A DNA stretch of 64,000 bases, taken from the IMG/VR virus record IMGVR_UViG_3300029374_000315, positions 17,327-81,326 of that record. One strand, written 5' to 3'. Below are positions 2,683 to 25,822 of the stretch, piece after piece (positions within the stretch are counted from its first letter, which is position 1; every line of letters starts with the position of its first letter). The notes under the pieces are model-generated. The model did no database searches and was not told the DNA's origin. It worked only from the letters and a program-made list of their open reading frames with translations. The stretch comes from a virus. A program made the position numbers and the translations under genes.

Positions 2683-3195
2683 ATGAGAGAATTTGAAGGC
2701 TTTATTTTTCCTAACGGAAGAATTGTAGCGATTCCTGAAGAGGAATATATGGCAGCTATCGAAGCAGGAAAAGAAATTCTTGTGTTTTGTGGTGGATGGG
2801 CTGGTGGATACGCTAGAGCGTTTGGTGCAGATAAGGAACAGGATATTTATGAGCCTAATAAAACTTGTTACATGACCTATTCGTATGATGTCATGGATAA
2901 GACCTTTACGCCAGAAGATATGAAGCGGTTCGCTAAAGTGATTGTCACAGATGGTATCCGTGTGTACATGAAAACAGGTGAGTCGGCCAGTGATTATTAT
3001 TCTGGAACATTCTGTGACTGTTGTACGAAAGACAGGCTCGAAGAACATTACCCTGACACTTGTAGCAACGATATCGAACAATACGATTTCAGTGATTGCC
3101 AGACAGTTGATTTTGATATGACGGTTCGTATGCTGGGTGCAGATGATAAAGATTATGAAGGTATGGTAAAGATGCTCAAGGGGATTTTGAGGTGA
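2683..3195 (+). CDS. hypothetical protein
   Basis: 170 aa; RBS GAGGTAA. Confidence 0.55.
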   Translation: MREFEGFIFPNGRIVAIPEEEYMAAIEAGKEILVFCGGWAGGYARAFGADKEQDIYEPNKTCYMTYSYDVMDKTFTPEDMKRFAKVIVTDGIRVYMKTGESASDYYSGTFCDCCTKDRLEEHYPDTCSNDIEQYDFSDCQTVDFDMTVRMLGADDKDYEGMVKMLKGILR

Positions 3196-17038: not shown

Positions 17039-17374
17039 ATGATTTATACTGTAACAATGATTGACTCGTTTAAGGATGAGCAGAATGCGAAATTTAGCTC
17101 GCCGGTATCAAATACCAAAGGTATCTATTGGATGCCAGATGATAGTTGGATTGCTGGGTACTTCACGGATTTGAAAGAAGCTATCCAGTCTGTGATTGAT
17201 AATGTGGCTGATGTCTTTGAACACTGCTACAACTATGCAGTTATTGAAGGGTACGAAGAAGGATTCTATCCTGTGGCCGAGCTGACGAAGTGGTTTAAGT
17301 ATGATGCCAAGAGCGACAAGGCATTTGAGATTGAACCGCCGTTGCATAATAATGTGCGTGGATATGCGTTTTAA
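17039..17374 (+). CDS. hypothetical protein
   Basis: Internal ATG of ORF 16913, right after upstream stop. Confidence 0.45.
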   Translation: MIYTVTMIDSFKDEQNAKFSSPVSNTKGIYWMPDDSWIAGYFTDLKEAIQSVIDNVADVFEHCYNYAVIEGYEEGFYPVAELTKWFKYDAKSDKAFEIEPPLHNNVRGYAF

Positions 17375-23000: not shown

Positions 23001-23085
23001 GGGGATATGGTGAAATTGGCAGCCACGCTTGATTCAAACTCAAGTGTCGAAAGACGTATCGGTTCAAATCCGATTATCCCTACCA
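23001..23085 (+). tRNA. tRNA-Leu (anticodon CAA)
   Basis: Cloverleaf drawn by hand: acceptor GGGGATA/TATCCCT, anticodon stem CTTGA/TCAAG with loop TTCAAAC, long variable arm, T-loop TTCAAAT, CCA encoded. Confidence 0.8.
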
Positions 23086-23282
23086 TGAAGATCAGTTGTT
23101 CTAGCTAGATCGGGGATTGGCCGTTCATTGGCAAACGACAAGCATCACACCGGTAAATGATGCCGAGCCCAATAGGAAGGGGAATAAGGTGCAAGCCGAG
23201 TAGCTGTCGGACGAATACCCTTCAGGTAGCCAGTAAACCGGAATGTAAAACAAATGTTGGCTGTTTCTGATCTTCTATATAA

Positions 23283-23365
23283 GCTACCGTGGTGGAATGG
23301 CAGACACCGGAGACTTAAAATCTCCTGTCGGAAACGACGTGCCCGTTCAAGTCGGGTCGGTAGCA
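23283..23365 (+). tRNA. tRNA-Leu (anticodon TAA)
   Basis: Acceptor GCTACCG/CGGTAGC, anticodon stem GGAGA/TCTCC with loop CTTAAAA, long variable arm, T-loop TTCAAGT. Confidence 0.8.
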
Positions 23366-23372
23366 TTGATAT

Positions 23373-23448
23373 CCGGGTGTAGCTCAGTTGGAAGAGCGCG
23401 TGCTTTGGGAGCATGAGGCCGCAGGATCGTGACCTGTCACTCGGACCA
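23373..23448 (+). tRNA. tRNA-Pro (anticodon TGG), atypical T-loop
   Basis: Acceptor CCGGGTG/CACTCGG, D-arm GCTCAGTTGGAAGAGC, anticodon loop TTTGGGA, CCA encoded; T-loop reads ATCGTGA (non-canonical). Confidence 0.55.
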
Positions 23449-23536
23449 GCCCGAAAGGGCATGTAGAATTTTTCATTCACATTATTCCCAGCTCTCTGGA
23501 AACGGAGCAGTGTGACGTAGTAAGCTGGGTATATGA

Positions 23537-23607
23537 TGCGCCATCGCCAAGCGGTAAGGCAGAGGACTTTGACTCCTCCATCACAGGTTCAACCCCTGTT
23601 GGCGCAA
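23537..23607 (+). tRNA. tRNA-Gln (anticodon TTG)
   Basis: Acceptor TGCGCCA/TGGCGCA (U1:A72, as in bacterial tRNA-Gln), anticodon loop CTTTGAC, T-arm ACAGG-TTCAACC-CCTGT. Confidence 0.75.
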
Positions 23608-23612
23608 TTTAT

Positions 23613-23694
23613 GCGGATATGGTGGAATGGCAGACACGCCAGACTTAGGATCTGGTGCTTCGGCGTGTGGGTTCGATGCCCACTATCCGCACCA
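23613..23694 (+). tRNA. tRNA-Leu (anticodon TAG)
   Basis: Acceptor GCGGATA/TATCCGC, anticodon stem CCAGA/TCTGG with loop CTTAGGA, long variable arm, T-loop TTCGATG, CCA encoded. Confidence 0.8.
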
Positions 23695-23801
23695 CGATCA
23701 TAGAATGGTTGCGTACCGTTTTGTTGATCTCCTTTGACTGCCACTATTATTCCCAGCTCGCCAGTGATGGTGCAGTAGTGCTTTGTAAGCTGGGTGATTA
23801 T

Positions 23802-23876
23802 GCAGCGGTCGTACAATGGTTAGTATATCAGCCTTCCAAGCTGAGGATGAGGTTTCGACTACCTTTCGCTGCTCCA
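23802..23876 (+). tRNA. tRNA-Gly (anticodon TCC)
   Basis: Acceptor GCAGCGG/TCGCTGC, anticodon stem TCAGC/GCTGA with loop CTTCCAA, T-arm GAGGT-TTCGACT-ACCTT, CCA encoded. Confidence 0.7.
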
Positions 23877-24063
23877 ATCTCGTATGGGTAGGATTTTTAG
23901 CGGTCAAATCCGGCTGCGCCTGTGCGAGATACCACCCCGAAAGGGGCGAGATATAGGAAATGTGCATCACTGTTATTCCTTCCTCGTCTATATGATATAG
24001 ATGCAATAGTGTTTATAAGGAAGGTTCCCAGTTGAATAGTTGCAGCTGTTTGACTGGTAATAT

Positions 24064-24140
24064 GGGATAGTAGCTCAGTTGGTCAGAGCTGGCGGCTCAT
24101 AACCGCTTGGTCGCGAGTTCAAATCTTGCCTGTCCCACCA
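24064..24140 (+). tRNA. tRNA-Met/Ile2 (anticodon CAT), elongator-type
   Basis: Acceptor GGGATAG/CTGTCCC, D-arm GCTCAGTTGGTCAGAGC, anticodon loop CTCATAA, T-loop TTCAAAT, CCA encoded. Confidence 0.8.
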
Positions 24141-24282
24141 GCCCAATAGGGTATACATAAAATCTGCTAGAATTTTTGTTTTATAAGCGATGAAATAATA
24201 TGACGTTGATACGTCTATTATTTTTTTGCTCATTTTCGGAGATTTAGCTATGTAACACAGGATACTAAAAGGAGGTGGTTTG

Positions 24283-25822
24283 GTGAAACATTATGGAAGT
24301 ATTTGCGAGATTGATGGTTCTAAGATTGAGCCTGTCTCGTGTATCACTGGTGGTTCACCTTGTTAGCCAAGACCTTTCTATTGCCGGTAAGCGGGCAGGT
24401 TTGGCTGGAGAACGGTCTGGTCTATTTATGGAAATGATTCGTGTGATAAAGGAAATGAGGGATGCCACCAATGGAGAATGTCCAAAATTTGCAATCTGGG
24501 AAAATGTTAGAGGAGCACTTTCCTCAAACAACGGAGAAGACTTCCGATGCGTCTTGGAAGAATTTGCACACATCGTCGAAGCAGACGCTACAATTCCTAA
24601 ACCTTCGGGAAAAGGCGGAAAATGGTCTAAATCCGGCGCAATTTCCGGTAATGGATGGTCTTTGGCATGGAGACTCTTCGATGCTCAATATTGGGGAGTG
24701 CCCCAACGTCGTCAAAGAATCGCGCTTGTCATGGATTTTAGAGGACAACGTGCCGCAGAAATACTATTTGAGCGCACGGGCGTGCAATGGAATCCTGACG
24801 AGAGCATCCCGACGTGGCAAAGCTTTGCCAGAATTACTGAAGAATGCACTGCTAAAGATGATCGAGTGGTGGGAGAAAAAAGCTTTTGTATTGTCGGAAA
24901 CATGATTGACAGAGAAACCAACATGAACGGGACTGGTGTAAAAGAAGATACTGCTTTTACTATAAACACTATTGACCGTAATGCTGTTGCCTACACTTTA
25001 AAGATTCGTTCAGGATGCGAAGGTGGTGGCAAAGGCGCACTGGTACAGACCGAGAAGAGTGCAACGCTTTCTACATTGCAAGATCAAACGCTAATCTGCT
25101 TGGCAGACAACACCTCTTTACATAATTTAAAACAAAAGATTTGTGTCTTGAATGATCAGGGCGGTAGTGTAATGAATGTTTCTTACGATATTGTAGGAAC
25201 AATAAGAGCACAAGAGCATGGTCATCAACCAATTGTATTTGAGAGCCATAGTCAAGATGCTCGATACACCCAGCAAGGTAATACAAGTCCGGCTTGTACG
25301 GCTCAATGGGGAACTGGTGGCAATAATATGCCGCTTGTTGCCGAAAAGAAAGCCTTTGCAATGCAACGCATTGGTGAATACAAGGAAAGTGAACAAGCTA
25401 GTACGATGAAATCTCGTGACTACAAGGATGCTACTGACTTGATTGCAGAGAAGGAAACGAAGAATCTGCAATGGATTGTTCGTCGCCTGACTCCTGTTGA
25501 GTGTGAACGGTTACAGGGTTTTCCTGATGGATGGACCGATATTGGCGAGTGGTTTGATGAGAATGGTAAAAAGCACAAACCTGCCGATTCTCCTCGTTAC
25601 AAAGCACTCGGTAATTCAATCGCTTTGCCTCAGTGGTATTGGATTTTCCAGAAAATGAAACCGTATATCGGTGAAAATCCTACGCTTGGCAGTCTTTTCG
25701 ATGGAATTGGTGGCTTTCCGCTTGTCTTTGAAAGTATGTATGGTGATGGTACTGCTATCTGGGGATCAGAGATTGAACCGTTCTGCGTTGCAGTAACGAA
25801 GAAGCATTTCCCAGAAGACTAA
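24283..25822 (+). CDS. DNA (cytosine-5)-methyltransferase, circularly permuted; N-terminal catalytic segment in a different frame (frameshift/pseudogene or recoding)
   Basis: Frame A (GTG 24283) encodes ...EIDGSKIEPVSCITGGSPC then TAG at 24364. Frame B (24293..25822) continues QDLSIAGKRAG (motif IV), ENV (VI), QRRQR (VIII), RLTPVECERLQGFPDGW (IX), KALGNSIA (X), and at the C-terminus LFDGIGG (I) and SEIEPF...HFPED (II/III). Confidence 0.8.

Follow-up and report, generated by a model that had tools for sequence, protein, structure and literature searches.

A natural, circularly permuted C5-cytosine methyltransferase family and a TAGC insertion, fixed in the catalytic motif of one human-gut phage lineage, that may be a +1 recoding site

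Circular permutation of the ten-motif scaffold of C5-cytosine DNA methyltransferases occurs in nature in M.BssHII, M.Alw26I and M.Esp3I (Type H), in which the break lies in the variable region and motifs IX-X stand before motifs I-VIII. Another departure is seen in M.AquI and M.EcoHK31I, whose subunit genes overlap. Both are known as two-chain C5-methyltransferases (PMC3404938). A further topology, Class B, in which the new N-terminus lies between motifs II and III, was defined by Slaska-Kiss et al. (PMC5944983), whose Class B permutants showed the highest activity among the topologies they engineered and whose search of REBASE found no natural Class B enzyme; our literature searches found no later account of one. 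Here we describe a gene from a 64,000-nucleotide stretch of viral DNA (positions 17,327 to 81,326 of the IMG/VR record IMGVR_UViG_3300029374_000315; hereafter the window, in whose coordinates positions are given) that encodes a methyltransferase of this topology and belongs to a large natural family. Its catalytic Pro-Cys-Gln (PCQ) motif is interrupted by four nucleotides, TAGC, which are fixed in a lineage of uncultured human-gut phages (~130-140 kb) and either constitute a new recoding site or disable the gene throughout the clade.

Loci bearing TAGC are termed group A (sub-lineages A1 and A2), and the sister group with an intact PCQ, ~44 loci in the same large phages, group B. The parts of the gene are as follows.

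24270..24275, + strand: Shine-Dalgarno sequence AGGAGG, read from the sequence
24283..24363, + strand: leader, with GTG start, motif III (YGSI) and motif IV through Pro-Cys (sequence, profile and M.HhaI alignment)
24364..24367, + strand: TAGC insertion, its TAG being the leader-frame stop (alignment with FP_Toutatis and Lelie; invariant in group A)
24368..25822, + strand: remaining methyltransferase frame, +1 relative to the leader, starting QDLS (end of motif IV; sequence and M.HhaI alignment)
24500-24508, + strand: motif VI, ENV
[quoted passage not shown]
~25481-25525, + strand: motif IX
25610-25624, + strand: motif X, GNSIA
25694-25714, + strand: motif I, LFDGIGG
25766-25783, + strand: SEIEPF
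25820-25822, + strand: stop of the methyltransferase frame

The Shine-Dalgarno sequence, whose GGAGG core is unchanged across all group-A loci, stands ahead of both TTG 24280 and GTG 24283 and serves the leader frame, with a spacing of 7 nucleotides to GTG 24283; since one locus (L011) has TTA at 24280, the GTG is the conserved start. The ATG at 24293, which is the called start of the long open reading frame (ORF), lies 17 nucleotides from this Shine-Dalgarno sequence and has none of its own. The 27 codons of the leader (translation VKHYGSICEIDGSKIEPVSCITGGSPC) end in ...GGSPC and are followed directly by TAG, while the +1 frame from 24368 reads QDLSIAGKRAG... and remains open until TAA at 25820-25822. 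Under standard translation the catalytic Pro-Cys does not lie in one polypeptide with QDLS, as both a stop codon and a +1 frame change intervene. DNA alignment with the homologues in the Faecalibacterium phages FP_Toutatis and Lelie places exactly 4 extra nucleotides, TAGC, between TGT (Cys) and CAA (Gln), and this is the sole difference of the window gene from those homologues at the junction, in agreement with the initial annotation, which had motif IV broken by exactly 4 nucleotides comprising TAG and a frame change. The long ORF matches Pfam PF00145 with E=1.7e-29, improving to 3.2e-37 once the 4 nucleotides are removed, so that the leader frame and the long frame belong to one methyltransferase and are not unrelated proteins. 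Motifs IV, VI, VIII, IX, X and I are all present, and both the PF00145 match and the motif alignment with M.HhaI bear out its identity as a C5-cytosine DNA methyltransferase. No second C5-methyltransferase or complementing fragment was found within the window.

The order of the motifs in this protein is III-IV-V-VI-VIII-TRD-IX-X-I-II. Residues 4-89 align with residues 58-136 of M.HhaI (motifs III-VI), residues 125-152 with 146-172 (motif VIII), residues 398-447 with 271-308 (motifs IX-X) and residues 469-508 with 16-53 (motifs I-II), as expected from the circular permutation that had been proposed from the motifs; when the C-terminus is joined to the N-terminus, a single continuous alignment to M.HhaI 16-136 results (E=4.8e-13 versus 1.7e-9), so the one end does indeed run on into the other. 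The same order is found in every relative examined, namely FP_Toutatis, Lelie, group B, L059 and L067, and the relatives begin M-K-H-(Y/L)-G-D-I and end LFDGIGG...SEIE.F....F. The permutation, which lies naturally between motifs II and III, is a family trait of phage and mobile-element C5-cytosine DNA methyltransferases and, because every relative examined shares it, did not arise by a local tandem duplication and truncation, as had been suggested at first. Nor is M.BssHII, to which alignment had been proposed, an apt comparator. Motifs IX-X occupy residues 398-447, after motifs III-VIII and before motifs I-II, and only motifs I-II have moved to the C-terminus, whereas Type H enzymes carry IX-X in front; the arrangement of III-X followed by I-II, with a C-terminus that is seamless into the N-terminus, is that of Class B. 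The enzyme class is thus ordinary, and the topology is a natural instance of one known only from engineering. The Class B enzymes described previously are laboratory constructs (PMC5944983), whereas here the topology characterizes a large natural family, which adds a long TRD, an overlapping second frame and split variants. An AlphaFold model of an intact relative (P0041, from a 16-sequence alignment) was unusable, with a mean predicted local-distance difference test score of 38.5, and we therefore make no structural claim about the permuted fold.

The junction TGT TAGC CAA occurs in 54-62 IMG/VR loci, on contigs mostly of ~110-140 kb, after filtering by leader identity of a 15-mer search that also gave many chance matches. 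A degenerate pattern of the leader followed by TAGC recovered a further 25 human-gut metagenome contigs (ENA/JGI) from many projects, while the same pattern with an intact junction had no match in IMG/VR or in 241 million metagenome records. With the repaired N-terminus as query, no protein among 5.8 billion joined this leader to PCQ, and the best full-coverage match, P0121, has a different leader. An exact-match search for the repaired junction, GGTGGTTCACCTTGTCAAGA, returned nine loci, all of them unrelated canonical methyltransferases. More than 100 (~120) protein clusters, some of them represented on 47-209 contigs, start with the out-of-frame leader MEVFARLMVLRLSLSRVSLVVHLVSQDLS; these proteins are 471-549 residues long and differ in their TRD modules and C-termini. 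The insertion is invariant in every group-A locus and lies inside an invariant patch of 27 nucleotides (24346-24372) that is unvarying even though ~40% of the codons differ on either side (an estimate from the variable-site list), and that does vary among group-B haplotypes. TAGC is thus fixed in a clade that has diversified and that has modules of many types downstream, which is at odds with the earlier suggestion of a fresh inactivation. A megablast comparison of 12 kb of window sequence with isolate phages gave no match, which marks this phage as an uncultured one.

The initial annotation had also raised the possibility of an indel in the sequence, and a related idea is that TAG is read as Gln, such that the gene is really intact. 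TAG does occupy the very position at which Gln would be expected, and reassignment of TAG is known in some gut phages. Yet >80 contigs, assembled independently in many studies and from many human-gut samples, share the identical TAGC, and we therefore reject sequencing or assembly error; no intact allele with this leader was found in the three collections searched. Reading TAG as Gln would leave the frame wrong, giving PCQPRPFYCR and then a stop; of the 64 long ORFs in the window, 10 terminate with TAG, and counting TAG as a sense codon lengthens ORFs less than doing so for TGA or TAA; and the seven tRNAs encoded just upstream of the gene are standard ones with no suppressor tRNA(CUA) among them. 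We accord both ideas next to no probability and consider them refuted.

Variation among the TAGC haplotypes changes phase at the insertion. The leader frame has 9 synonymous and 4 non-synonymous variable sites, nearly all of which would be non-synonymous in the frame of the long ORF; in the +1 frame, ~14 synonymous and 4 non-synonymous sites were counted from the variable-site list over 24368-24461, where no other ORF overlaps. The nearest differences lie within 19 nucleotides before and 6 nucleotides after TAGC, which places the switch at the insertion itself, and third-position variation of the +1 frame extends over 24368-24697 and again from ~24878. Over the leader and the next 330 nucleotides, the changes within the closely related A1 sub-lineage (15 haplotypes, all with TAGC) number 18 synonymous and 7 missense, with 2 nonsense. 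Singletons in A1 are 71% synonymous (p=1e-4 against a neutral 25%) compared with 55% in group B, a level of constraint no lower than that of the group with an intact PCQ, and the synonymous changes are spread across at least six sub-lineages; A1 does not show the ~25% synonymous substitution of a neutrally evolving pseudogene. Purifying selection thus follows the leader frame before TAGC and the +1 frame after it. We dropped the corresponding singleton statistics for all of group A, for which an ungapped comparison fails with diverged alleles that carry indels. The C-terminal half is nearly identical in the TAGC and intact groups and must therefore have been exchanged by recombination; its ratio of non-synonymous to synonymous substitution was not used as evidence. 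Of the 37 distinct TAGC haplotypes, 26 retain an ORF of >440 residues, and do so with many recombinant backgrounds downstream; the diverged, A2-type leader differs from that of A1 at eight synonymous sites and one codon and still keeps TAGC. Because the variation in each frame is biased towards synonymous changes, we suggest that the parts upstream and downstream of TAGC are both still translated.

The phase of variation departs from the methyltransferase frame over one interval, which coincides with an ORF in the third frame.

24462..24905, + strand: third-frame ORF of 147 residues (homologues, codon phase)
24654-24902, + strand: conserved domain of the third-frame ORF, DGLWHGDSSMLNIGECP...YYLSARACNGILTRASRRGKALPELLKNALLKMIEWW
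24876..24881, + strand: run of six A residues at which the third frame (..EWWEKK) meets the methyltransferase frame (..GEKSFC), 18 nucleotides before the third-frame stop

Over ~24698-24877 in group A, and in the equivalent region of group B, variation falls on the third positions of the third frame before returning to those of the methyltransferase, and on this evidence of codon phase the third frame is the selected one there. No codon position varies around motif VIII, and the two frames must therefore both be under constraint in that part. The peptide ...GECPNVVKESRLSWILEDNVPQKYYLSARACNGILTRASRRGKALPELLKNALLKMIEWW... has 3027 representative homologues, and the domain had no match in Pfam, PHROG or NCBIfam; none of the 37 distinct TAGC haplotypes has a broken third-frame ORF, not even those in which the methyltransferase is truncated. 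In relatives from two independent sources (L232, 3173-4520, and L233, 275-1622) the locus is laid out as two genes overlapping by ~440 nucleotides: alpha, of 207 residues, contains motifs III-VIII and then stops, and beta, of 445 residues, starts within alpha in the +1 frame and consists of the third-frame domain followed by TRD-IX-X-I-II. The window gene is the fused variant, in which the alpha frame continues through to the gene's end, with the third frame stopping at 24905; with its methyltransferase frame uninterrupted over 24368-25822 it is not itself a two-subunit gene of the M.AquI kind. L232 and L233 are split after motif VIII into two polypeptides from overlapping frames, an arrangement that resembles M.AquI and M.EcoHK31I. 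They differ from these enzymes in that the split is joined with a Class B permutation, in the ~440-nucleotide overlap, and in a second chain whose opening domain, conserved and uncatalogued, is overprinted on motifs VI-VIII. The domain is confidently predicted to form a hairpin of a helix, a turn and a long helix, and a search of the Protein Data Bank with this fold gave no match with E below 1; one might guess at a role in subunit docking. A -1 slip at the run of six A residues would carry translation from the third-frame domain into the C-terminal half and yield a beta-like protein.

We only slightly favour recoding over a stable null allele. Translation may still proceed past TAGC, the simplest route being a +1 shift at UGU-UAG-C that gives PC-S-QDLS, a reading that we place a little short of an even chance. 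Ribosomes would start at the GTG at 24283, served by the Shine-Dalgarno sequence, read 27 codons and meet UAG in the weak context UAG-C. A minority would shift +1, with peptidyl-tRNA-Cys resting on UGU through a G:U wobble and AGC being read next, and would go on to translate the long frame, giving a full-length enzyme (...GGSPC-S-QDLS...) that would bear the junction peptide ...GGSPCSQDLSIAGK. TAGC would in this way act as a translational throttle that keeps the level of the methyltransferase low. We infer the frameshift itself, its efficiency and the activity of its product. At the junction Cys is encoded by UGU without exception, whereas the leader's other Cys codon is TGT or TGC. A limit on translation seems to exist in sister group B as well: its sole in-frame start at an appropriate distance from the Shine-Dalgarno sequence (8 nucleotides from GGAGG) is a conserved CTG, which aligns with the GTG of the window and from which, according to codon phase, the frame is read, from KHYGDIT onwards, and an out-of-frame ATG stands 1 nucleotide after the Shine-Dalgarno sequence (e.g. 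L036, 2400-2500). Gene callers therefore start the group-B gene at a TTG inside QDLS.

The nearest described parallel to such a shift is prfB, the gene of release factor 2, at CUU UGA C, which likewise has a stop codon in weak context with C following, a G:U wobble in the P site and a short frame followed by a long +1 frame. The site described here shares with it the poor-context stop (UAG-C), conservation of the site and frame-specific selection on both sides. It differs in that no re-pairing is possible, the element resembling a Shine-Dalgarno sequence is misplaced and no autoregulatory logic is apparent, and the shift at TAGC is putative. A hop of the kind seen in T4 gene 60 was also considered and rejected, as the take-off codon is UGU and the codon 4 nucleotides on is AGC, which does not match; a hop to the only nearby UGC (24382-24384) would land in the leader frame, with TAA two codons later.

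Several observations weigh against a shift. From the sequence there is no canonical +1 site, since tRNA-Cys (GCA) cannot re-pair from UGU to GUU; a GGUGG that resembles a Shine-Dalgarno sequence (24349-24353) lies 7 nucleotides before UGU and not ~3 nucleotides as in prfB; the RNA around the junction folds no better than shuffled sequence (z=-0.32); and the tRNA island holds seven ordinary tRNAs, none of them a suppressor or otherwise unusual. In the product the catalytic Cys would be separated from the conserved Gln by an additional Ser, and the activity of such a variant is putative. The frame-broken copies in FP_Toutatis and Lelie imply that the enzyme is dispensable in the family, and the locus is heavily recombining and mosaic, so that some of the variation that seems selected could have been imported from functional alleles. 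Secondary lesions are carried by ~4 of 28 A1 haplotypes (3 of 27, being two nonsense changes and one frameshift, plus the nonsense change of L227) and by 8 of 10 A2 haplotypes, and no point lesion occurs in 40 group-B haplotypes; nonsense changes within A1 are at about the neutral rate.

Many of these observations would be accounted for if TAGC had knocked out the methyltransferase and become fixed in the lineage as a stable null allele, with no full-length enzyme made, and we regard this as a serious possibility, if not a probable one. Fixation could have come about by drift, by hitch-hiking, or through 5-methylcytosine in the DNA being a liability against methylation-dependent restriction, and the DNA of the allele would persist through the overlapping third-frame ORF and through renewal of its flanks by recombination with functional relatives. 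The search for a slippery motif, a stimulatory structure or a suppressor tRNA was negative. Truncation affects 11 of 37 distinct TAGC haplotypes against the 0 of 40 with point lesions in group B, the two A1 nonsense mutations are independent and about as many as expected under neutrality, and among the singleton changes in the leader is a G>D substitution affecting motif IV's conserved GG. The preservation of the third-frame ORF even in truncated haplotypes fits as well, as do mosaic breakpoints throughout the gene, the existence of an intact relative with a group-A-like region past the junction (P0121/L234) and the commonness of frame-broken copies elsewhere in the family. Most of the truncated haplotypes fall in a single diverged subgroup that shares the same lesions. 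Against a null allele, the sub-lineages that carry TAGC show a strong deficit of missense changes before and after it, as the 18 synonymous to 7 missense changes of A1 illustrate, and to place an A2-type leader next to TAGC by recombination would take conversion tracts of at most ~30 nucleotides, or two flank replacements each ending within ~20 nucleotides. The intact donor that is required (...ICEIDGSKIEPVSC... and then PCQ) was found in none of the three collections, in which the TAGC form appears at least 80 times.

Selection on both frames would also be expected if the gene gave two separate chains, the 27-residue leader being released at UAG and the remainder made by termination-reinitiation at GTG 24350, which is in the long frame and 14 nucleotides before the stop. 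The outcome could be a non-covalent enzyme or, alternatively, a large chain without the Cys that acts as a non-catalytic, sequence-specific DNA binder. A break between the catalytic Cys and Gln would put the nucleophile at a free C-terminus, and we know of no split at this position that works. A 27-residue fragment supplying two core strands is moreover unlikely to assemble efficiently, and a role as a DNA binder leaves the continued conservation of the leader peptide unexplained. The family is structurally plastic, as the division of relatives into overlapping alpha and beta genes attests, and engineered fragments of C5-methyltransferases do complement each other (PMC5944983, PMC3404938); even so, we consider two chains improbable. 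The +1 shift remains our slightly preferred reading. The fuller proposal, that UGU-UAG-C within PCQ is a new, signal-poor programmed +1 frameshift by which a widespread clade of gut phages throttles a Class B C5-methyltransferase, in a gene that also has a ~440-nucleotide dual-coding stretch whose second frame is a conserved, uncatalogued domain heading a second subunit in relatives, is one that we put forward more tentatively, as possible but doubtful.

Other members of the family vary in ways of their own. The homologues of FP_Toutatis and Lelie contain a poly-G tract at ...PRPAGGGG..., of nine G residues in the former (L001, ~3165-3180) and fourteen in the latter (L002, ~3165-3185), which sets the frame that follows, the outcomes being a 201-residue product that enters the third frame, a 133-residue product or the full-length protein (P0041). 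This tract looks like a switch for phase variation, unless the two records suffer from a homopolymer sequencing problem; another G-rich hotspot lies near ...GRDRGG/EWWQGGG.... Like methyltransferases that are phase-variable through simple-sequence repeats, these relatives hold G-tracts within the gene that set the frame, and the family is often frame-broken; TAGC, unlike such switches, is not a repeat, would not readily revert and is invariant. Two relatives have insertions, P0047 an intein (PF14890) between ENV and the next Gly of motif VI, and P0051 an in-frame insertion resembling an HNH/helix-turn-helix homing endonuclease within GFP|DGWTDIG. In a variant of the group-B gene (L074-L079, e.g. 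L074, 1508-2510), the promoter-proximal 287 codons are inverted relative to the C-terminal part, with the break at an imperfect inverted repeat of 27 nucleotides formed by the counterpart of an intergenic motif upstream, AAAATCTGCTAGAATTTTTGTTTTA, and an internal sequence, TAAAACAAAAGATTT, that codes for LKQKI; the inversion is present in five distinct haplotypes.

The motif involved in that inversion also occurs upstream of the window gene, where the following features were noted.

23001..24140, + strand: tRNA island upstream of the gene, comprising Leu-CAA, Leu-TAA, Pro-TGG, Gln-TTG, Leu-TAG, Gly-TCC and Met-CAT
24159..24183, + strand: intergenic motif AAAATCTGCTAGAATTTTTGTTTTA, the 'motif copy' of the initial annotation, with a single occurrence in the window
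24202..24226, + strand: terminator-like hairpin GACGTTGATACGTC followed by the T-run TATTATTTTT, between the tRNA island and the gene (consensus match only)

The island encodes three Leu tRNAs together with those for Pro, Gln, Gly and Met, the longest spacers being ~190 nucleotides, and the methyltransferase gene adjoins it, as had been noted, lying ~140 nucleotides downstream of its end. In L013, L072 and L093 an ORF for an amino-type methyltransferase (...ISNPPFSRKDE...) lies just downstream of the gene, ~1590 nucleotides after the junction, and in L234 a PF01555 N6/N4 methyltransferase (277-1137) is found just upstream; in the window, small unrelated ORFs take the place of the amino-type methyltransferase downstream of the gene.

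In summary, this locus provides a natural, large family with the permutation that engineers found fully active yet could not find in nature, and it bears on the evolution of the methyltransferase fold. The third-frame domain is represented by >3000 sequence clusters and has no Pfam, PHROGs or NCBIfam entry; the locus is routinely mis-annotated by gene callers and is a good test case for long dual-coding regions. If ribosomes do bypass TAGC, the junction would be a new kind of +1 recoding site, through which a phage throttles a potentially costly DNA-modifying enzyme; if they do not, TAGC would be a clean natural knockout, and comparison of methylation and host range between TAGC-bearing phages and their intact sisters would be informative about restriction conflicts between gut phages and their hosts.

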